From: Rhizodiscina lignyota
Lineage: Eukaryota
Length of the DNA: 64,000 bases
Direction of reading: 5' to 3'
Assembly: GCA_010015805.1 (NCBI GenBank)
Contig: ML978133.1
Location: 620,001-684,000, forward strand
Shown: positions 19,758 through 39,646 of the stretch, piece by piece
How the letters are laid out: every line of letters begins with the position of its first letter
Position numbering within the stretch: position 1 is the stretch's first letter
Program-made: the position numbers and the translations under genes
The notes under the pieces: model-generated
Seen by the model: only the letters and a program-made list of their open reading frames with translations
Databases searched by the model: none
Told to the model about the DNA's origin: nothing

Positions 19758-21632
19758 ATGGCTCCGTTGAACGTGAACTCGGCGATCCTTGGGTCCCTCT
19801 TGCGACCAGACGCCTGGCTATTGATTGGCGTCCTTGCTGTCGTGGGCTATGTCGTGTACGAGCGCTTCCTGTCCCCTTGTGCAGGCATTCCGGGGCCTTT
19901 CTTCGCCAGCCTCTCCCGCTGGTGGATGATCAAGCATACTCTGGAGGGAGATATGCACAGAGTCATGATCCAGCAGCATGAAAAATACGGAAGCCTTGTC
20001 AGGACAGGGCCGAATGAATTGAGCATATCAGACCTCAGCGCAATAAGGAAAATATATGGTAGGACAAAGAGGAACTGTAGCGTGTGGACTGGCGCTAACG
20101 CCCTTCACAGGCCCCGGGTCGAAGTTCAGAAAGTCGGACTGGTACTCTGTGTGGCAGGGCCACCGGAAGTTCGATCTGTTTGCGGAGAGAAATGAGAGCA
20201 TACATGGCGCACAACGAAAGCTGGTGGCCAGAGCCTATGCGATGGAAACGTTGAAAGACCTCGAAGAATATGTCAATAATGCCACTCGTGTCTTCATTCA
20301 ACGAATGGACGAGATGCAAGACCAGGTTGTGGATATGGGAAAATGGGTTCAATTGTATGCATTTGGTATGTACACCGCTTCCTCGGCCCTCCACGTCCGA
20401 ACCTGATATCCTATCCAGACGTTATTGGTGAGATTACATTCTCAAAGCGCTTCGGCTTCATGGACGTTGGTGAAGATGATGGGACATTCGGTGCCATTGA
20501 AGGTATATTAGGATCGGCATCCTGGATAGGCCAAGTCCCATGGCTCTTCTGGTTACACGATTATCTTCAACCTGTAATTGGAAATCACCTGAAGGTCAAC
20601 GCCCGCCACGGCGGTGTCCGTAACTTTGCAGCTCGTGAAGTCGCCGCTCGGAAGGATCGCGGCAGTGACCACAACGATATTCTAAGCAAGCTGTTTGCGG
20701 TGCAGAAAGACAAGCCCGAGTTTGAGGACACTTCCGTGCTGTCCATGGCGACGTCAAATGTAGCTGCGGGTAGTGACACGACTGCCATCTCTTTGCGCGC
20801 AATGGTGTGGTATTTGCTCAAATACCCAGAGTGCAAGCAGAAGCTCGTCGAGGAGATTGATGAGAGACGGAGGCAGGGCAAACTTAGCGATCCCGTCCAG
20901 CTTGAGGAGGCCGATCAGATGCCTTACCTGCAAGCTGTCATGTGGGAAGCGCTGCGGCTTCACCCGGCCGTCGGCATGAGTTTGCCACGAGTTGTGCCAG
21001 TAGGTGGGACGGAATTCGATGGCCATTACTTGCCTGCTGGTGTACGTTATGACTTAATCTCAGTAGGCATGGCCGTGAAAGCTGACGTGTGTTCGCACAG
21101 ACTATTGTGGGAGTCAATCCGTGGGTTGTCCAACGGAACAAAGAGGTTTATGGCGAGGATGTTGAAACGTTCAGACCTGAGCGTTGGTTGAACAAAGAGG
21201 ACAAAGGCGACATGCGTACGAGTCGACTCGCCGAAATGCCTTACGGTTTGAACTGACGCATGTTGTAGAGCGGTATTTCTTCGCTTTTGGCGCTGGAGCA
21301 AGGCTTTGCATTGGAAAGAGTAGGTGCAGTGTAAATTGTTGGATGCTATACACCGCTAATACCGTCATAGACATAAGTTGGCTTGAAATGTCAAAGGTGA
21401 GCTCGTGTCTCCAGATTCTGCCCGATGATCTACTGACTGTGCGCGCAAATGCAGCTTATTCCGACATTGTTCATGCACTTTGATATCACCCTTGAAGATT
21501 CGGACGCAGAGTTGAAGGAAACATGCTGGTAAGTTCTTGAAGTGGTCGTTCATTGTTTCGGCTGACATTCGCAGGTGGTTCGTGATCCAGAAGGGCTTGA
21601 ATGTGAAGCTGAATCGTCGTATCCGTGCCTAA
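19758..21632 (+). CDS. Cytochrome P450 (pisatin demethylase/CYP57-like group), multi-exon
   Basis: N-terminal anchor, [14 protein letters not shown]-helix [17 protein letters not shown] and heme motif [10 protein letters not shown]. Several short canonical introns. Confidence 0.92.
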
Positions 21633-24600: not shown

Positions 24601-25367
24601 TCCTCCACTCCACACGTTGCTCTAAAACCCTTTCAAAGTCGCTCTTCAGACCTTCTTCTGCCAGCCGAAATGCAAAAGAGGGCGTCCATCTAATCCGGTC
24701 CCCTAATCCCATCCCAATCTTCACTCAGAATCACTCTCGCCCTCCCGCGGCAACCGTGGCAACCGTGCGTCACTAGTGCGTTCTGCCTTACAAGAGCTCT
24801 TCTCCGCCGCCGCTCTTCCTCTTCCTCTTCGCACTCTCTCCAACCAACACCACCCACACTACAACAACCTTCTTCTCTTCATCAATACCCATCTACGACA
24901 CCAGCTGAGCTGGCTGTCAGAGATCTTGCCCCTTTGATCCTTTCTTGTCGCTGCCACTGCTCTGGAGAGCTCACTGCCTCTCAAATCACGCGTCACGCTC
25001 AAGTCTGACGCCACGGGAGCACACACAAACAACAAAATTCCAGCACACACTTAAGGTAAGCTGCGGCTTGGTATTGATGCATCTATTCCCCCTTCGGCCC
25101 TACGCGTTTGAGAGAGCCCGAGATCTCGAGAGCTCAAGATCTCATCGCCGTCGATGCTTGCCTTTTGTTTTCGAGCCGTGTCAAGCTCAGCTTGAAAAAA
25201 AAAAACACGCACACACACGCACCCTTTCGTTGTGCACCCAACTCCACACCGCACGCCTGGCCCCTTTCTTACAATATACATTACCACTCATGTACCTTTG
25301 AAGTTTCGATGTTCCTGTTGATAAAACAAAACGCGGTACGTCGACAGCTTTCCTTTTGTTTCTTTAC

Positions 25368-25459
25368 ATGATGAGCAAATTGATACTGCACGCATAGCCT
25401 TTGAGCTCCTTAGGCTTTACTCTTCGGCAATGGTTGAGATATATGACATTACTCTCTGA
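25368..25459 (+). ncRNA. Intronic box C/D snoRNA 1 (target uncertain)
   Basis: Box C ATGATGA 25368 and box D CTGA 25456 inside intron 25336-25538. Box D is about 60 nt from the branch point GCTGAC. Confidence 0.68.
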
Positions 25460-25612
25460 TCCAATATGACACTCTACCACAGTTTTCGTCCGGATAAAGA
25501 CTTTGCTGTTGTGGTTTGCTGACATGCCGATACTCCAGAGATTTGTCGGCCTCTCGATCTCTTGATCTGTAATACACAGCCCGGTACGTTATACCTTCTT
25601 TTCTTCTTGTTC

Positions 25613-25704
25613 GTGAATGATGAAATTGGTAAAAGGTGTAGAGAGCCACTTGGCTACGAGCCTCGGTGGCTCTCCATGACATACTTTGCATCGTCTGATC
25701 TCAC
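25613..25704 (+). ncRNA. Intronic box C/D snoRNA 2 (antisense to U5 loop 1)
   Basis: Terminal stem gtga/tcac, box C 25617, box D 25695 and internal hairpin gagagccac/gtggctctc. TGGTAAAAGG at 25627-25636 is complementary to conserved U5 CCUUUUACCA. Confidence 0.8.
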
Positions 25705-26083
25705 CTCCGAGACCTTCCTTGGGACGCGTTCATTTTCATACATGGCTGGATGCACATGCTAACCTCCCAATACTCGCAGTGATGATTTCGAATTCCCGAT
25801 TGGCCGTTCGAAGCGCAGTGAGTCCAAACTCTCTTCATTCCACATTTTGATTGTTCAATCGGCTCATCATTTTCCGTCGTCATGTTCGCCAGCATCTTCA
25901 GGACAGCCCGGGCCCCTGGCGTTTGTCCGACTTTGTCGATCCCATGACATTCACTGGGCTTCAGGAGTCGGTCATCCGAGGACATTGTGTCCTGTCCGAG
26001 ATCAAACAGCCGGCGAGCCAAGGGCCCCTTTTCCACTGTAGAAGTCGGCCCTTTCAAAGTTAATTTCTCGGCCAGAAATTAAT

Positions 26084-26226
26084 CTCTGGGTGTGATGATT
26101 CAAATCTAATAATGGGCTACACGCTTGGCTCCCGGAAGAGTTATGAAGGGTTCCTTCTGGTTCCCTTCAAAACCGCCGGGCAGCCACTCGTACGCCATGC
26201 AGAAATAAAGGCAATCTGATCCAGAG
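26084..26226 (+). ncRNA. Intronic box C/D snoRNA 3
   Basis: Perfect 6-bp terminal stem ctctgg/ccagag, box C GTGATGA 26092, box D CTGA 26216. D-guide AAAGGCAA. Confidence 0.8.
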
Positions 26227-26595
26227 TTCTGACCGGCTGACAACCCATCCCTCCAATCTTTTCAATGTTCCTCGGTTTGCACTGATGCTCGTCGGGAGCG
26301 GCGAGAATGTATCTGATTGGCATTGATTTCCCGCTGACGCACTTATCAGATCACTTTGTCCCCTTCTCTTTCTCTCATGCATAACCCTGTTTGAGCTTGC
26401 TAACAACTCGTCTTAAACAGGCTTCGGAGGCAGATCCTTTCGCTGGCGGTCTCATTTTTCGCCTGTCACTTGCTCCGTTTGGAGATTGAGACACGGACGA
26501 GACGCCGTCAAAGACATTGATGGCGAAAAGATTGAGGCGAGCCCAGATTTCTCTTTCCATTCTTTTGCACGAGTTCCTGCACCCACTCCCGTATC

Positions 26596-26668
26596 ATGAT
26601 GAACCTACCATGCTAATGCTGAGCCGTCGGCTGTGACCATCTTCTATTGTTTCAAATCAATTGTCTGA
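26596..26668 (+). ncRNA. Intronic box C/D snoRNA 4, predicted U6 snRNA 2'-O-methylation guide (mgU6-53-like)
   Basis: Box C 26596; guide CCATGCTAAT 26608-26617 pairs with U6 AUUAGCAUGG; D' CTGA 26619; box D 26665. The fifth nt upstream of D' pairs with the A equivalent to human U6 A53. Confidence 0.87.
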
Positions 26669-27077
26669 TCCAACACGGAGAGCTATTTGCCAATCGAGCT
26701 TTGAGACTTCTCTTTAAATCCGAGCTAATACATACGATCTCCGCGCAGGCTTTCCCCTCCACCAGTGTGACGAAACACCTCTACTTCCTCCTCCTCACGC
26801 ACAACGCGAATCACCCAAGCTGCGAACGATCGATCGTTGTCTCGCCGGACTCGTGAATGACTTCTGCATGGCCTGGAACACATGTCCAATATAACAGCCA
26901 GTATTGTCGAAGCGGTTGGTTGAGCACTGTCGTACAATCCAAGGAGCCTGGAAGCTGCATTGTCTGGCCACGCAGCGGGGAAGCTGTCGTTGGATAAGAC
27001 TGGAAGAGTCAGCTTGTCCTACGTGGCCACTGTCATTGTGAGTCTGCCGTTGTTTCCTCCTTTATGGGTAGCACCAC

Positions 27078-27207
27078 GTTGGAAGGATGACAAAGATTAC
27101 GGCAAAACATACCTACCTTAGCTTCTCTTCTGCTCAAGTCAGGGTTGAGATGCAAACGGGATGAAATGACTCCCGTGGATGACCGAAAAAATCTTCGCCT
27201 GACCAAC
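27078..27207 (+). ncRNA. Intronic box C/D snoRNA 5 (variant C box AGGATGA)
   Basis: 5-bp terminal stem gttgg/ccaac, C'-like TGGATGA and box D CTGA 27199, inside intron 27038-27274. Box D is about 52 nt from GCTAAC. Confidence 0.68.
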
Positions 27208-27379
27208 ATAAACACATAGCCACGACTCTTTCTGCCATTTAAAAGTTGCTTGGGCTAACAATATGTACGGACAGGCTCGCCGCTGCCCCGACAAGATGCA
27301 CCAGAGGAGTCTGGTCCCGCACGAGAGCTTTTGCGCGTGAGTCGCTCCATTTATTTCTTCATGAGTACCACTACATTGC

Positions 27380-27476
27380 ATGATTACAACAACAAGATCT
27401 AAGCCAAGCGAGGAGAACTTACCGGCGGTATTGGGCGGGAACGCCTGATGACGACAAGATCTCAATCTTCTTCTGA
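27380..27476 (+). ncRNA. Intronic box C/D snoRNA 6 (antisense to U2 and U6)
   Basis: Box C ATGATTA 27380, C' TGATGA 27446 and box D 27473 in intron 27337-27548. GATCTAAGCCAA 27396-27407 pairs with fungal U2 UUGGCUUAGAUC; AATCTTCT pairs with U6 AGAAGAUU. Confidence 0.78.
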
Positions 27477-28149
27477 CCCACACAAACATATTGCGATGAC
27501 TGTTTCTGCGTATCACAAGTTACTGAAGCTGACAAAATGTACCACCAGATTTGCCCGGAACGAAACGGAGACAAAGACGCATGCAGGACAGGTGCAATCC
27601 GGAGAAGTCTGGTGCAAGGAAATGGCCTTTAACCGTGTGAGTCTGCACTCTGCTTTTCTTCATCAGAGTCCCATGTTGTCTTGAAAGTGATTCAAAAAGA
27701 AGACAATAATGGCTTGGTTCCTTGTGCCATGTGCATCGAATCCCAACTCGCGTGTTGAACTTGTAGTAGCAGCGATATGATCTGCAATGACCCTGCGTTC
27801 GTTGTTCAGCTCCGCTTTATATGTTACTTCGGCTAACGGAATCGTGTTTCCAGGCTCCAAGACAGCGTGAAAGTGACGGCGCCGAAGTCGTCAAAGCCAC
27901 ACTTGGACGGTACCAGCTGGCCTCCACGAGTAAGTGACATCTCAGTCACTACTGTGCTCGAAGAAACAGCTTGAACGGCGATGCTGACACCGAGAGAAGC
28001 AACGGCCAGGCCAACAAGATCATAGTCGAATACAGGCTCGAATCGAAGTGCGAATGAAAGCATAGTCGGCGGTAACGATTCAGACAGTATAGACAACCTA
28101 AGCACGTGAGTCCGGTCTCGTACTTCTGAAACCCAAAGCAGCATATTTC

Positions 28150-28316
28150 ATGATGACAACCCATAATCCAATCGTACAGGCGTCACAGCTTCGGTACACA
28201 TCGAAGTGGTTTCGCCTCGTTGCCTAACCTGCATTGCACATCGAAGTGGTTTCGCCTCGTTGCCTTAACCTGCGGTGTGTGCCGGAGTGCCCATGACGAA
28301 TTTGAAGAACATCTGA
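28150..28316 (+). ncRNA. Intronic box C/D snoRNA 7
   Basis: Box C 28150 and box D 28313 preceded by GAAGAACAT, in intron 28106-28402. Paralog of snoRNA 8. Confidence 0.75.
28197..28273. repeat. Tandem duplication with a 40-nt period inside snoRNA 7
   Basis: cacatcgaagtggtttcgcctcgttgcct(t)aacctgc at 28197-28232 and 28237-28273. Confidence 0.95.
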
Positions 28317-28530
28317 TCCTTAACAATGCCTTTGGAGCTCTGTCCTGAATTGCAAATCTTGCTTTGTCCATCCTTTGCTAACACTATTATCATCGAATAT
28401 AGGCTCAAATTGAACTTTGAAGGGAGAACGAGAGCATGGTCGACGGCAACGATTCGGACAATATGGACAACCTAAGCACGTGTAAGTCCAGTCTCGTACT
28501 TCTGAATCCGAAGCAACTTACTTCATGGAA

Positions 28531-28691
28531 ATGATGAATATCCTATAATCTTCGTACCCTAATGGGTTTTTCATCTTAGTCCATTCCATGGCTCCAACCA
28601 GACTTGTGAGGTTTCGCCTGCCATGGCACACTGGTGGAGCAATACCCCGTCTGTGTGGAGTTATGACATGCAGAAAATGAGGAACATCTGA
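28531..28691 (+). ncRNA. Intronic box C/D snoRNA 8
   Basis: Stem tgga/tcca, box C 28531 and box D 28688 preceded by GAGGAACAT, in intron 28482-28763. Box D is 50 nt from GCTAAC. Confidence 0.8.
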
Positions 28692-28991
28692 TCCAATGAC
28701 ATTACAACTTCATTCTTCTCAAGCACCTTGGATTTCCCGCGCTAACAAGGTTTTGGTAAACAGGCTCAAGACAGACGGCAGACGAAGAAGGAAGAAAGGC
28801 GTCGCGCAGACACTAAAGAGGCGTAATTGAGAATTGAGATTGATTGAAAGAGAAAGTGGAGGAGAAAGAGCTAGTCATTGACGTTCACGAGCCGAGAAGG
28901 CAGGCAGCACAGGAAGTAGACCGGCGGACTGAACCACACACACACCTTCAGTCCCAGTAAATAGCCTTTGACTCAAGATGACTTCTATATT

Positions 28992-29580
28992 CTACCGCGC
29001 CGCACTATCTCGTGATTGCATCAGCTTCCTCGCTTCCGCCTTCAACCAGCTCGCATCTGGCGGCAGTTTCGATTTTCCCTCGGGCAAAAGTTTCTCTTCC
29101 TCTTCATCTCTCATCGCATTGGCCGCGTTATAGCCCTTCCTATCCCACGGTGTGTAGTCCTTTGGTTCTTCCGGCCATACGAATGGCTTCTCCATCCGAA
29201 TTGTCATATACTTTGTGCTTATCGGTCTATGCCATTGTCTCTTTGAGGCTCGTGTCTCTGCGGGCTTGTTCGGCTGGATCGGTGATATCCTGACAACCGA
29301 TCGCACATGTAATGCTTCGACTCCATATGCATGGTAGAGATAGTCCTTCAAATCGAGTTTGTTCCAGTTCAGCGGTACGCGGAATCTTGCGAAGGTCGGA
29401 GGTAGGTGCTTTGTACGGAGAAGTGTGACAACGGCTTTGATCGGCGGCCTGCGTAGTATGTGTCAGAGAGAGTCCAGCGAGCAATGCAAACACTTTACTG
29501 AAGAGCACGACTCACAAGTATATCTCCTTCTGCCCAATCACCTTGAATATATTGCCGAATTTACGCATAGCGGTAGCCAT
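28992..29580 (-). CDS. MRP20: Mitochondrial ribosomal protein uL23m
   Basis: Exon 1 MATAMRKFGNIFKVIGQKEIYL, intron, then PPIKAVVTLLRT..LPPTFARFRVPLNWNKLDLKDYLYHAYGVE...KYMTIRMEKPFVWPEEP. Confidence 0.88.
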
Positions 29581-30811: not shown

Positions 30812-32763
30812 ATGTGGCCCCAAGCTTGCGTCATCACCGCGCTGGTGCTGTACTTCTCTCTAACAATACTTCCGCTCTATCGCAACTATGTGGTTGCGAG
30901 GAAGGTCGGATTGCCAATCATCATCAGCCCCGTCAATCCCTTGGGAGTATTTTGGCTCCTCTTGGGAGTACGTTTCATACCACTGATACGATTGCTTCCA
31001 AACCGTCTCTCCCTATGGACTCATTGCACCGAGTACGGCGGAGGATTCAATGACAGGACCGCCATCCACAAGCGAGTCGGGCCAGTCTTCATGCATGTCA
31101 ATCCTGCTTGGAATGAGTTGGTGGTCGCCGATGCAACCTCTGCGGCCAGCATTCTCAATAGAAGGAAAGACTTCATTAAGCCCCAAATATTTTATGGTGA
31201 GTAACTCCCGACTATCAGATTTGGTTCTAATTGAGCCCAGAGCGTTTGAACGTCTTTGGTTCTAATGTCGATACGGTACGTACAATCTTAATAAATTCTC
31301 TCATGCAGATTGCCCTTCTTTCTAACGGGCCCTTCATTTTTCTAGGTTGAAGGCGATGACTGGCAGAGGCAGCGCAAATTAACGGCGCCTTGCTTCAACG
31401 AAAAGACTAGTAAGGGCGTTTGGGATATCGCCTCCAATCAGGCAAAATCAATGGTAGAACACAACATGTCTCTGTTCGATACTTCCACGAACTCGCTGCA
31501 AGATGACTCCAGGACAATAGCTATGAATGTCCTCGTTGGCATTGGCTTCGGTATTATGCAAGACTTCCTCACTGGACAGAAGAAGGTCGACCCAGGCTAT
31601 TCCATGAGCTACGTGGACTCGCTAAGGACAATCATCCGCAACATTTTGTTCACCTTTATCTTTCCTCACAAGGTTCTCCTTTATGGATTTATGCCGAGGG
31701 CACTACGCAAGGTGGGCATCGCCATAGCAGAGTTCGGCCGGTACAACCATGAGTTGCTAGCCAAGGAACGCGATGCTATACAGCACGAACAGCAAGCTGT
31801 CCGGAACAACCTCTTGAGTACATTGGTCCGATCATCAGATGCCGAAGATTCAAAGACAGGCAAGAAGCAAGGACTTTCCGAGGAAGAAATTCTCGGAAAC
31901 ATGTTCATTTTCAGCCTCGCAGGACACGACACGACAGCCAACACTATTACTTTTGCTATTGGGCTTCTTGCTGTCCATCCAGAGTGGCAAACCTGGATAC
32001 AAGAGGAGCTCGACTACGTCTTTGGAGCGAAGGCGGGAGGAGAATATGAAGATGCATTTTCAAAGCTCAAGCGGTGTCAAGCGGTAGTAGTAAGCACCTC
32101 ATCTGCTCTTTCATTCGTTCCATGACCATATCGACGTGACTCATGTATACGGACCACTATCCTTGTTCTCGCTGACGCCTGTTGCAGTTTGAGACACTCC
32201 GACTTTGGGGCTCGGTCCCATTTATTGTCAAATCCACTGGAGCTGAAGCCCAACCTCTCGAGCTTCCATTCGGTGCTCCAGGGTCCGCGTACCGCCAATG
32301 CATCCTTTCGCCTAATACTATGATACATATCAACCTCCCAGCACTTCATATCTCTCCTGAAAACTGGGGTTCTGACAGCCTCACATTCCGACCATCTCGC
32401 TGGATCCAGACTGGTGGTTCTGTTTTGCCGACTGACTCTGCACTGCCAAAGGATCTCGAGTCGGAGAGGCTAATCACTCCCCGAGCTGGCGAGTTCATTC
32501 CTTGGGCTATGGGCCCGAGGAATTGCCTCGGTATGAAATTCGCTCAGGTAGAAGCCGTATCGGTGCTGAGCACGGTGTTCAAGAGCGCGCGAGTCAAGCC
32601 AAGCTTGGCGCCGGAACTGCGCACTGGACAGTATGATCTGTCTGATGGAAGATTATCGAGAAAATTGGCGATGGAAGTGCTCAAAGAGAGGCGTGTGGAA
32701 GTTACAATTACGATTGCCAGGCCTCACGACCTCTGGCTGAAGTGGGAAATGAGAGAGGGATAG
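30812..32763 (+). CDS. Cytochrome P450, four exons
   Basis: Start MWPQ at 30812, VEGDDWQRQRK, FSLAGHDTT, ETLR, RPSRW and FIPWAMGPRNCLG. Three canonical introns keep the frame. Confidence 0.9.
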
Positions 32764-37802: not shown

Positions 37803-39646
37803 CTAGTCCGTGATCTCTCGTATGTTCAACCTCCTCCTCTTTCTCGCGTCATCGTCCTCGCCCTCTCTCTGGCCTTCTCCTTCCCCAGGAGTCCTGGGAC
37901 TTCCCTCACTCTCGGCTTGCATGGTGTGAAAGCTTCTTGGCTGGCCAGGATAGCTAATGGGCCGGCTTCCGGACGTGGTCGAGCCGGTCGTGGTGCCAAG
38001 AGGTTCGCTCACTGTGGAGGTTGGTCGACTGCTGGTGCTATACAAAGAAGGGGGCTGTCCAAATCTAGCTGTTGGGTCGAAACCAGGAGGCGGCGGTTGA
38101 GTAGATGGTTGAGTTCGGGGTTGAGCGGGAAAGTAGCCGCCTGAGGAGAGATCGAATCGTGCGGAAGAGAGCCCGTATGCTGTTACGGGCACGCTCGTCG
38201 GCGGTAAAGAGGATGCGAGGGACTGAAGGCTAAGAGACGGAGTCGACGGGCCAGATCCTGTTTGAGGATATCCGCCTGGAGAACGCTGTTGATATACCGG
38301 TTCATACTGCGGGGGAATCTGAGGAACCGCAGGAGTCACGCTGAACGGGTTCATGTGTCCCGCCGGAAGAGCTGACGGCAGAGAGCTTGCCCCATAGTGA
38401 GGAAGCGTCAAGACCACGAAGGGAAAACTGCCAACTTTGCCGAGCTGGATGTACATTTGGCGCGTAATAAGCTGCCGGCCAGCTTGTACAAACGTCCAAA
38501 GTTCGCCGCGCTCCCTGCTGCCAGCAGTATAAGCGCCCAGCTCGGCCTCGTTTATGCCTTCAATGGCTCGAGTCTCTTCGTCTGAGTAAATGGTGGGAAG
38601 CGAAAGTGGCTCCATCACCTCGCGCTCATTTCGAAGGTCCGTTGCTAGGCGTTGGATGTCGGGTTCGTGTCTACGGTCCACAAAGTCGTTCAGTTGCCGG
38701 TCTGTCAAGTCACCTCCAGGTGCGAACTGATCGCGGAATTGCTGGTTTGCTCTAACAATGCGTAGATTGAGGTTCATAAAAATGCGCGCTTCCAGGCCGC
38801 GTCGCGGAGAGTACGGAGACGGTTGGGAGGCACCTGCTCCGGTAATGGTGTGTCGTTGGGTTAATCGTGGGTCAGGCTGGACTGGCTGCACCATCTGCCC
38901 GACGCTGGCTCGATGCGATCTCAGAATCCTTCCTGACTGTGTTCTTCGGTGCCCAGGAGGGAAGCTCGACGTATGACCGCCTTGCGCTTCACCGAGCATT
39001 CCACCTTGTGCTGCAGCCGCAATTTCACGGCCTTGGCGGGAGTCGCGGTCATCGCGTAATCGTGGTCGCCCTCTTTTCTTGTGTTCCACGTCCTGGCAGG
39101 TGTCCTGCGAGGAGATAGGATTAGTTCCCTACTTGTCTAAAGATAATTTGATGCCTGACTAACCTGCTTCCCAGATGCGACGCACCGCGCACATGGCCTT
39201 TGCGCGTCGCAACTCAGATGCGCCTTCTTGCAATTTATGCAAGCTTTCTGGACATGTGTCTTCCCTCTTCTGGATGATCTTGCTCCTCGTAAGGCTGCTT
39301 GTGCGGGACGTCCAATCTCGGTCTGGACAAGAGCTGGGCCAATGCTTTGACTCGAGATGGCAGCGCGCTGGGGAAAGTACTCCGCTCGGCCCAGCAGGGC
39401 ACTCTGGCCCAGAGTCGGAGGTGGTCCAACAGGCGAAAACAACGCGCGTGAAACCGGCTGGTACTGACTTGGGCTAGGAATTGCAGCGCTCGCAGGTATG
39501 GCTTCCCGCCTGAAAGCGGTCGTCGATTCTGGTCTACTCTGCGGAGGCGCGTGAGCACCTCTGCCGGCTTCCTGAGAGATTGGATAGTCCTCTGGAGCAC
39601 TGCTGGTTGGAATATATCTTCTGGGCGGTGATGGCGGGTTTGACAT
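37803..39646 (-). CDS. Zn(II)2Cys6 transcription factor with a putative PAS-like region (start uncertain, may extend upstream)
   Basis: ACINCKKAHLSCDAQRPCARCVASGKQ, intron 39105-39163, then DTCQDVEHKKRGRPR. The frame stays open upstream to 39829. Confidence 0.88.

Follow-up and report, generated by a model that had tools for sequence, protein, structure and literature searches.

A non-coding, intron-rich locus of Rhizodiscina lignyota predicted to host eight box C/D small nucleolar RNAs, one of them a putative snR53/CD11 orthologue

What is encoded by about 4 kb of fungal DNA that is rich in introns and poor in open reading frames (ORFs), and on which RNAs would its products act? The question is raised by positions 24800–28950 of a stretch of Rhizodiscina lignyota contig ML978133.1 (GCA_010015805.1, positions 620,001 to 684,000, forward strand), the whole of which, 64 kb in length, is called the window here. 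An initial annotation placed eight intronic box C/D RNAs in this region and proposed that together they form one locus dedicated to the modification of spliceosomal small nuclear RNAs (snRNAs). Our preferred answer, to which we assign a probability of about 0.78, is an ordinary host gene of the UHG type with mixed content: an snR53 orthologue accompanied by several unassigned, partly duplicated box C/D small nucleolar RNAs (snoRNAs). It would be a UHG/gas5-type snoRNA host gene without a protein product, belonging to a filamentous ascomycete and transcribed from left to right. Its short, poorly coding exons would be spliced together and probably discarded, and each of eight introns, once debranched, would be trimmed by exonucleases to a single box C/D snoRNA.

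The region is devoid of convincing protein-coding capacity, as the annotation had stated. The longest ORFs inside it, on either strand, are 118–130 amino acids long, and none of the four in-region or edge ORFs scanned (24.8–28.95 kb) belongs to a Pfam family. The 11 exons of our spliced model amount to 1266 nt, with a longest ATG-initiated ORF of 94 amino acids. The plus strand carries about ten introns, eight of which contain a well-formed box C/D snoRNA (A–F, H and I); the remaining two hold a decayed C/D remnant (G) in one case and are short and empty in the other. Nine introns combine a GT[AG]NG[TC] donor, a GCTRAC or GCTAAT branch point and a YAG acceptor 16–21 nt past the branch A, which bears out the predicted minimum of nine canonical introns. 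A CT-rich stretch (24800–24900) precedes the putative first exon. The parts of the host gene are as follows.

24850..25055, plus strand: putative first exon; its start coordinate is guessed, and donor aag/GTAAGC lies at 25056
25056..25538, plus strand: intron 1, 483 nt, with an alternative donor GTACGT at 25336; hosts snoRNA A
25584..25779, plus strand: intron 2, 196 nt; hosts snoRNA B
25818..26420, plus strand: intron 3, 603 nt, with an alternative acceptor at 26349; hosts snoRNA C between long flanks
26537..26748, plus strand: intron 4, with candidate GC-AG donor GCGAGC; hosts snoRNA D
27038..27274, plus strand: intron 5, a paralogue of intron 6; hosts snoRNA E
27337..27548, plus strand: intron 6; hosts snoRNA F
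27637..27853, plus strand: intron 7; carries the degenerate C/D-like element G
27930..28025, plus strand: intron 8, 96 nt (80 nt to an acceptor at 28009); no snoRNA
28106..28402, plus strand: intron 9; hosts snoRNA H
28482..28763, plus strand: intron 10; hosts snoRNA I
28764..28950, plus strand: putative last exon, with the presumed 3′ end; convergent with a minus-strand Ribosomal_L23-like gene

The intron around snoRNA D departs from the common donor pattern: no GT[AG]NG[TC] donor is present between 26421 and 26590, and its branch point (GCTAAT, 26724) and acceptor (26748) are ordinary. The best donor candidate is gag/GCGAGC at 26537, 59 nt upstream of box C. Because GCGAGC after gag resembles a GT-to-GC variant of the GTGAGY donors of this gene, intron 4 would be a GC-AG intron with an inferred donor; alternatively, snoRNAs C and D may lie within one long intron, 25818–26748.

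The snoRNAs themselves are defined by their boxes (listed below). Box D is CTGA in all eight and is extended to CTGATC in six (A, B, C, D, H and I), and box C has the exact form RTGATGA in the same six, with one mismatch in E (AGGATGA) and in F (ATGATTA). Element G, which has AGTGATT and ATGA at these places, is not a C/D RNA by its boxes. RNAs released by debranching and exonucleolytic trimming usually have box D at a fixed distance from the branch point. In seven of the eight this distance, counted from the end of box D, is 50–61 nt (A 59, B 60, D 56, E 52, F 52, H 61 and I 50), in line with the 50–60 nt given by the annotation; snoRNA C stands apart with 180 nt, or with 114 nt if another branch point is used.

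25362..25465, plus strand: snoRNA A; box C ATGATGA 25368–25374, box D CTGA 25456–25459
25611..25704, plus strand: snoRNA B; box C 25617–25623, box D 25695–25698
26084..26227, plus strand: snoRNA C; 8-bp terminal stem, box C GTGATGA 26092–26098, long internal hairpin, box D 26216–26219
26589..26678, plus strand: snoRNA D; box C 26596–26602, D′ CTGA 26619–26622, box D 26665–26668
27078..27208, plus strand: snoRNA E; stem GTTGG/CCAAC, box C AGGATGA 27084–27090, C′ GGATGAC, box D 27199–27202
27375..27481, plus strand: snoRNA F; box C variant ATGATTA 27380–27386, C′ CTGATGA 27445–27451, box D 27473–27476
within intron 7, plus strand: element G; AGTGATT 27686–27692, ATGA 27787–27790
28145..28321, plus strand: snoRNA H; box C 28150–28156, C′ ATGACGA, box D 28313–28316
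28526..28696, plus strand: snoRNA I, a paralogue of H; box C 28531–28537, box D 28688–28691

Such an arrangement is rare by chance. We defined a composite unit as box C (at most one mismatch), CTGA, a spacing of 44–62 nt, CTRAY and YAG, and searched both strands of the 64-kb window for it. Eight units occur on the plus strand, all within 25.4–28.7 kb; one of them (26282) is an incidental CTGA inside intron 3, and snoRNA C itself falls outside the spacing filter. Shuffling the region 300 times gave 0.16 units on average and never more than 2. The single minus-strand unit, at 38924, lies in coding-like sequence and was rejected as a snoRNA. The window is also reliable at the level of its letters: the Logan contigs of the one DNA run containing the stretch show no difference from it and break solely at a 40-nt tandem repeat within snoRNA H. 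As the anatomy, box, chance and contig checks agree, the observations of the annotation are confirmed in nearly every detail. Terminal stems stand out in C (8 bp) and E (5 bp), are only 4 bp long or offset in B, D and I, and were found neither by folding nor by reading of the sequence in A, F and H. Folding further revealed a long internal hairpin in C (z −4.78) and, in B, a hairpin between the candidate D′ and C′ (z −3.57). SnoRNAs A, D and F are unstructured (A: z +1.5), as short C/D RNAs usually are.

C/D RNAs in non-coding fungal hosts have ample precedent. For Neurospora crassa, the accessible text of Liu et al. (2009, PMC2780460) describes six C/D clusters, five of whose host genes were shown to be UHG-like, with one snoRNA per intron and short ORFs only; clusters I–III of fungi are intronic in Euascomycetes, with hosts lacking coding potential (Luo et al. 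2013, PMC3596301, as far as available). The present locus resembles the N. crassa hosts in having several introns, one C/D snoRNA per intron and short ORFs. From 5′ splice site to snoRNA, N. crassa mostly has 41–60 nt according to the same partial text, and seven of nine units here have 33–59 nt. By contrast, that text gives yeast counterparts for five of the six clusters in N. crassa, whereas the present locus matches none of clusters I–III.

The RNA that can be identified is snoRNA D. Its D′ guide (26603–26618) includes CCATGCTAAT at 26608–26617, and the antisense element ACCAUGCUAAUG followed by CUGA is letter-for-letter equal to the consensus guides of snoR53Y and snoU6-53. These two families are also the top matches for D in a relaxed Rfam scan of an 88-nt stretch (snoU6-53, 20.6 bits, E 0.0087; snoR53Y, 14.8 bits), the best one being listed where matches of the same clan overlap. 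In Table 1 of Liu et al. 2009 (PMC2780460, consulted in part), N. crassa CD11 is a 79-nt intronic RNA with homologues snR53 and snoR53Y; the targets given are 18S-Am793 and U6-Am47 for D′ and 26S-Am356 for D. In addition, the fungal 18S primer SSU0817F starts with TTAGCATGGAATAAT (in the excerpt of PMC10052501 available); nine bases of the D guide pair with this start, and the base at the +5 position pairs with the third letter of the primer (A). Because of the consensus-identical guide, the CD11 table entry and the SSU0817F pairing, snoRNA D is best read, at the level of sequence, as an orthologue of snR53/CD11, that is, as an rRNA guide that also fits U6. Its D′ guide would direct 2′-O-methylation of the A in 18S UUAGCAUGG, and would also fit U6 at AUUAGCAUGG (human A53 according to the Rfam snoU6-53 consensus). 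This double fit belongs to the family: as far as the available text of Canzler et al. (2018, PMC5824354) goes, a U6 target is predicted for all family snoRNAs guiding the 18S site, save those of Saccharomycetaceae.

Compared with the snR53/CD11/snoR53Y family (CD_11 in the accessible part of PMC5824354), snoRNA D is alike in being intronic and in having a consensus-identical D′ guide that fits 18S and U6, and its size is similar, with 73 nt spanned by boxes C and D where the CD11 complementary DNA has 79 nt as tabulated in the part consulted. It differs in that its 3′ half carries 13 nt antisense to U6, of which we found no mention in the accessible portions of the family literature. A second likeness is to mammalian mgU6-53 (RF00377, snoU6-53/MBII-28), in which CCAUGCUAAU likewise serves as antisense element, a CUGA D′ box comes after it and +5 falls on the same U6 adenosine; beyond this part the two RNAs do not align, and the fungal one fits 18S as well. 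Given the sub-gathering score, the unaligned remainder and the fit to 18S, this resemblance reflects a common guide logic, not a demonstrated homology.

Do the other guides make this a locus for snRNA modification, as the annotation proposed? On that proposal, most of the eight RNAs would guide 2′-O-methylation of U2, U5 and U6, not of rRNA, in a cluster akin to small RNAs specific to Cajal bodies (scaRNAs). The comparisons were made by eye with yeast or consensus snRNA sequences, not with the snRNAs of this organism. Two long matches stand out. Positions 26645–26657 of D (TATTGTTTCAAAT) are a 13-nt exact complement of yeast U6 nt 35–47, ending at the first A of ACAGAGA (U6 as given in the accessible part of PMC3445587), so that D has two U6-antisense elements, this one and the 10 nt at AUUAGCAUGG. 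Positions 27396–27407 of F (GATCTAAGCCAA) are a 12-nt exact complement of yeast U2 UUGGCUUAGAUC (from the available excerpt of PMC10630445). A third match was found in B, where 25628–25636, together with two G-U pairs, could cover the full 11-nt consensus of U5 loop I, UGCCUUUUACY (as quoted in the part of PMC6679479 at hand), with nine Watson–Crick pairs and two G-U pairs beside a weak D′ candidate, TAGA.

With about 1000 nt of snoRNA and about 700 nt of snRNA, simple arithmetic predicts 0.04 12-mers, 0.01 13-mers and about one duplex of nine Watson–Crick and two G-U pairs. Thus, the U6 and U2 matches are unlikely to be due to chance, whereas the U5 match cannot be told from it, and the antisense matches claimed in the annotation stand for U6 (D) and U2 (F) and are at the level of chance for U5 (B). 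The box geometry of the U6 and U2 matches is poor. The 13-nt element of D lies 8–20 nt from box D, which puts it out of register and makes a +5 methylation impossible; base-pairing of guide RNAs beyond the guide itself is familiar from the literature, and the element could serve as such an accessory pairing. In F, the U2 element gives way to CGAG/GAGG and not to a recognisable D′ box. N. crassa CD29 has a D guide for U2-Am31 (16/0) that was verified by primer extension (PMC2780460, in the text available). Like CD29, F is a C/D RNA of a fungal intron and can pair over a long run with the 5′ region of U2, for which human SCARNA9 is a further guide; unlike that of CD29, its element pairs with U2 nt 18–29 (yeast numbering), ends before A30/31 and lies on the D′ side.

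The case for snRNA dedication thus draws on the two U6 elements of D, on the U2 and U5 complements of F and B, on the low chance expectation for the 12- and 13-mers, on the finding that no guide has a canonical target in the large subunit (LSU) rRNA among the 107 listed loci described below, and on the precedent of the snRNA-directed intronic C/D RNAs CD11, CD24, CD26 and CD29 in N. crassa (PMC2780460, accessible text). Against it, the D′ guide of D belongs to an 18S rRNA-guide family, the 13-nt element is out of the +5 register, the box C of F is weakened, the B match is at the level of chance, and A, C, E, H and I show only 7–9-nt matches to snRNA motifs by eye. The snRNAs compared were those of yeast or consensus ones, and with 18S represented by a single 274-nt piece, rRNA targets may yet exist. 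Resemblances of 7–9 nt between the guides of C, E and F and motifs in what we take to be the U2, U5 and U6 sequences were given no weight. The clearest U6 element is the D′ guide of D, and since the primary target of its family is 18S, with U6 second, we do not regard the locus as dedicated to snRNAs; we consider such a dedication improbable. Equally improbable, in our estimate, is a broader version in which a lineage-specific host, enriched for spliceosome-directed C/D RNAs that tune or chaperone the catalytic-core snRNAs, is expanding by tandem duplication. If it were true, the snR53 orthologue would have gained its 13-nt element as a second one and would clamp U6 on both sides of ACAGAGA, its duplicated neighbour F would pair with the U2 region of U2/U6 helix II and stem-loop I, B would pair with U5 loop I, and the locus would serve these snRNAs and not the ribosome. 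A search for U6 genes yielded nothing usable: a gapped pattern derived from the window gave one match in viral contigs, inside a protein-coding gene, and five in bacterial metagenome-assembled genomes, none with U6 spacing, all of which we regard as chance, and a U6 family search of 14 control genomes found nothing.

Two side observations concern F and H. Both guide regions of F (27396–27400 and 27456–27464) contain an identical 9-mer, ACAAGATCT, which suggests, from the sequence, either that the halves arose by internal duplication or that they have a common target containing AGAUCUUGU; the LR7 region of LSU has AGAUCUUGG, one base off AGAUCUUGU. Cajal-body localisation elements are the CAB box in H/ACA scaRNAs and a long GU-repeat stem in C/D scaRNAs; by eye, a short GTGTGTG run in H, at about 28275–28281, is all that was seen.

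If the guides are not directed at snRNAs, rRNA is the obvious place to look. As an LSU reference, a metagenome scan for the LR7 primer site returned at least 107 LSU loci, of which 80 were fetched with flanks. Their identity as LSU was judged from primer sites, mutual BLAST similarity and conserved blocks, one viral locus (L008) being confirmed by Rfam. Among the 107 listed loci, L017 and L088 alone carry both ITS86F and ITS4 sites, which we take to mark them as fungal-like; their LSU reaches to about 2250 and about 1750, respectively. Further primer sites added little: in viral contigs, the LR0R site marked three loci, one of which is an LSU 5′ end, and the ITS1F, NS5 and TAReuk sites had no match. 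A scan of 401 prokaryote genomes for an 18S primer site returned one 274-nt plant-like 18S fragment (L117), which was included in one of the target scans; further searching of its genome yielded no more. One 5969-nt metagenome LSU contig (L036/L037) shows an LR7 site on each strand, with about 1.9 kb between them, in an inverted-repeat assembly that is probably an artefact.

No guide target emerged from these references. Perfect complements of at least 11 nt between the 4.15-kb region and the 107 listed loci included no multi-locus match beside a D or D′ box, and a register-aware search of the same loci that allowed G-U pairs found no in-register target. On a 12-position score, none of 19 guide/box combinations reached 10.5 in L017 or L088. 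Against 5 of the 107 loci, the duplex energies of the guides were no better than those of shuffled guides. The listed LSU loci and the yeast or consensus snRNA motifs offered no convincing target for A, C, E, H and I, five of the eight snoRNAs.

Three partial LSU matches were considered and not retained. In B, the internal hairpin (25641–25675) has in its loop a 12-mer, GCTACGAGCCTC (25653–25664), that is perfectly complementary to a conserved piece of LSU in 5 of the 107 listed loci. It was rejected as a guide: it adjoins no box and is out of register with any D′, the 5′ guide of B being AATTGGTAAAAGGTG (25624–25638), followed by the candidate D′ TAGA (25639–25642). The LSU site is presumably near yeast G867 and N. 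crassa A846, and close to the predicted methylation site of N. crassa CD25. Ten nucleotides in the 5′ region of C match a conserved segment of LSU, GCCAAGCGU, which we take to be the snR38 target site; the sole in-register 'box' is CTCC, and the match was set aside for want of a usable D′ box. A 15-mer of C (26117–26131) matches one locus (L043) only, within a variable expansion segment.

These results bear on the possibility that the locus is an ordinary rRNA-guide cluster, the majority of whose guides have their targets in 18S, or in lineage-specific parts of 25S outside the reference set. The coverage leaves room for it: 18S is represented by the 274-nt plant-like fragment, and the two fungal-like LSU loci among the 107 are truncated. 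It would also be in keeping with the predicted 18S target of snoRNA D, with the match of C at the presumed snR38 site, and with N. crassa, where rRNA accounts for 64 of the 71 targets predicted for C/D RNAs, with 20 of these in 18S and many lineage-specific (PMC2780460, in the accessible text). However, about two thirds of the targets of a typical fungal cluster are in LSU, and here no multi-locus in-register match, no box-adjacent match of 10.5 out of 12 or better in the fungal-like loci, and, against 5 of the 107 loci, no duplex energy better than that of shuffled guides was obtained. We hold this reading to be possible, though tentatively and with somewhat more doubt than belief. The preferred reading, a host of mixed content, takes D as an rRNA guide and leaves its neighbours unassigned.

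The families of these neighbours are likewise not those of known clusters. At gathering score, Rfam has no family in the whole window, the seven snoRNAs other than D included, which fits the statement of the annotation that the guides match none of the yeast clusters snR72-78, snR57/55/61 and snR41/70/51. Relaxed scans, which covered the snoRNAs except for the stretch around G (27483–28142), gave weak matches to families outside these yeast clusters; of these, sn2343, snoR118, SNORD39 and snoZ122 are below threshold and were judged uninformative. A weak match of E to SNORD14 (15.8 bits) was rejected, as E lacks the U14 domain A, and for C the relaxed scan returned nothing. In exon 3 (25780–25817, 38 nt), TGATGA follows directly on the acceptor and there is a weak match to sn2343 (17.9 bits, E 1.9); with no box D, this is probably chance or a remnant. 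An additional RNA in the long 5′ flank of intron 3 was considered and rejected, its fold being unremarkable (z −1.76).

A further feature of the locus is its internal paralogy. The introns of E and F align locally with a score of 58 against a shuffle maximum of 20, and those of H and I with a score of 53 against 26. Exon 9 with intron 9 and exon 10 with intron 10 (28026–28763) have 77% column identity and form a tandem duplicate; exons 9 and 10 and the 5′ flanks (first 45 nt) of the two introns are about 85–90% identical, whereas the snoRNA bodies are far more diverged. H and I have in common a 5′ guide core that is conserved in part, CC-ATAATC...TCGTAC, and their guides end in the same six bases, GAACAT, before box D; E and F have in common AATCTTC at positions 3–9 before box D. 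Judged from these alignments, the cluster appears to have grown by tandem duplication of exon–intron units (E/F and H/I). The accessible text on the N. crassa clusters yielded no described counterpart of these tandem units. Within H there is also a 40-nt tandem duplication (28197–28273, 1.9 copies, 97% identical), the copy junction of which is bridged by a 71-nt unitig. The similarity of G to E and F is not significant (scores 24 and 22; shuffle maximum 24 for E–G), and G may be a decayed copy.

The same duplications can be taken to mean that the cluster is partly decaying, with F, G and perhaps H or I being young, drifting orphan or pseudo-snoRNAs in a host kept for D and a few others. That the duplicates E/F and H/I are better conserved in exons and intron flanks than in guides would be expected from this, as would the mere box remnants of G, the altered box C (ATGATTA) and missing terminal stem of F, and the internal duplication of H. 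Yet the C/D boxes and the spacing from box D to the branch point are intact in eight units, and in H and I the 5′ guide core persists in part, as does GAACAT next to box D in identical form. We judge such decay rather unlikely as an account of the locus, and continue to favour the mixed host described above.

Several points weigh against that preference. Intron 4, which carries the one identified snoRNA, has no GT donor. The sole sequencing run with the stretch is DNA, and transcription, splice junctions and stable snoRNAs are predicted. F, with a weakened box C and no terminal stem, may be non-functional. All Rfam matches are below gathering score, that of D to snoU6-53 at 20.6 against 36 bits and that to snoR53Y at 14.8 against 43. 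Seven of the eight snoRNAs are without an assigned target, so that the mixed content is read from one assignment. Finally, a Pezizomycotina-wide target on the box-D side is predicted at LSU positions of about 359 and 790 (Canzler et al. 2018, PMC5824354, in the part available), and for snoRNA D it was not found in L017 and L088, fungal-like stand-ins for the LSU of this organism, nor was the N. crassa 26S-A356 target recovered in them; the best duplexes there, −12.6 and about −16.7 kcal/mol, are discontinuous and far from box D. A D-side duplex with another locus (L025, −23.1 kcal/mol) lies at the box-distal end, contains three G-U pairs and was rejected as a guide.

The surroundings of the host are those of protein-coding genes. 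Three flanking ORFs were scanned against Pfam and gave p450, p450 and Ribosomal_L23. The host gene sits between the two p450 genes (20280–21191 and 31346–32125, both on the plus strand), and the stop codon of the Ribosomal_L23-like gene (28995–29462, minus strand), which by its motif is probably mitochondrial uL23, is about 40 nt from the presumed host 3′ end.

The architecture described here is already well described in Neurospora and other filamentous fungi, and this example adds little to it. Its content may be of more use. The locus provides a set of well-formed C/D RNAs without an LSU target that are candidates for targets in 18S, in snRNAs or elsewhere, and it illustrates how such clusters grow: whole exon–intron units duplicate, and the guides then diverge faster than the exons and flanks. 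If the extra U6 element of snoRNA D were found to be conserved in relatives, it would strengthen the predicted methylation of U6 by this family in Pezizomycotina.

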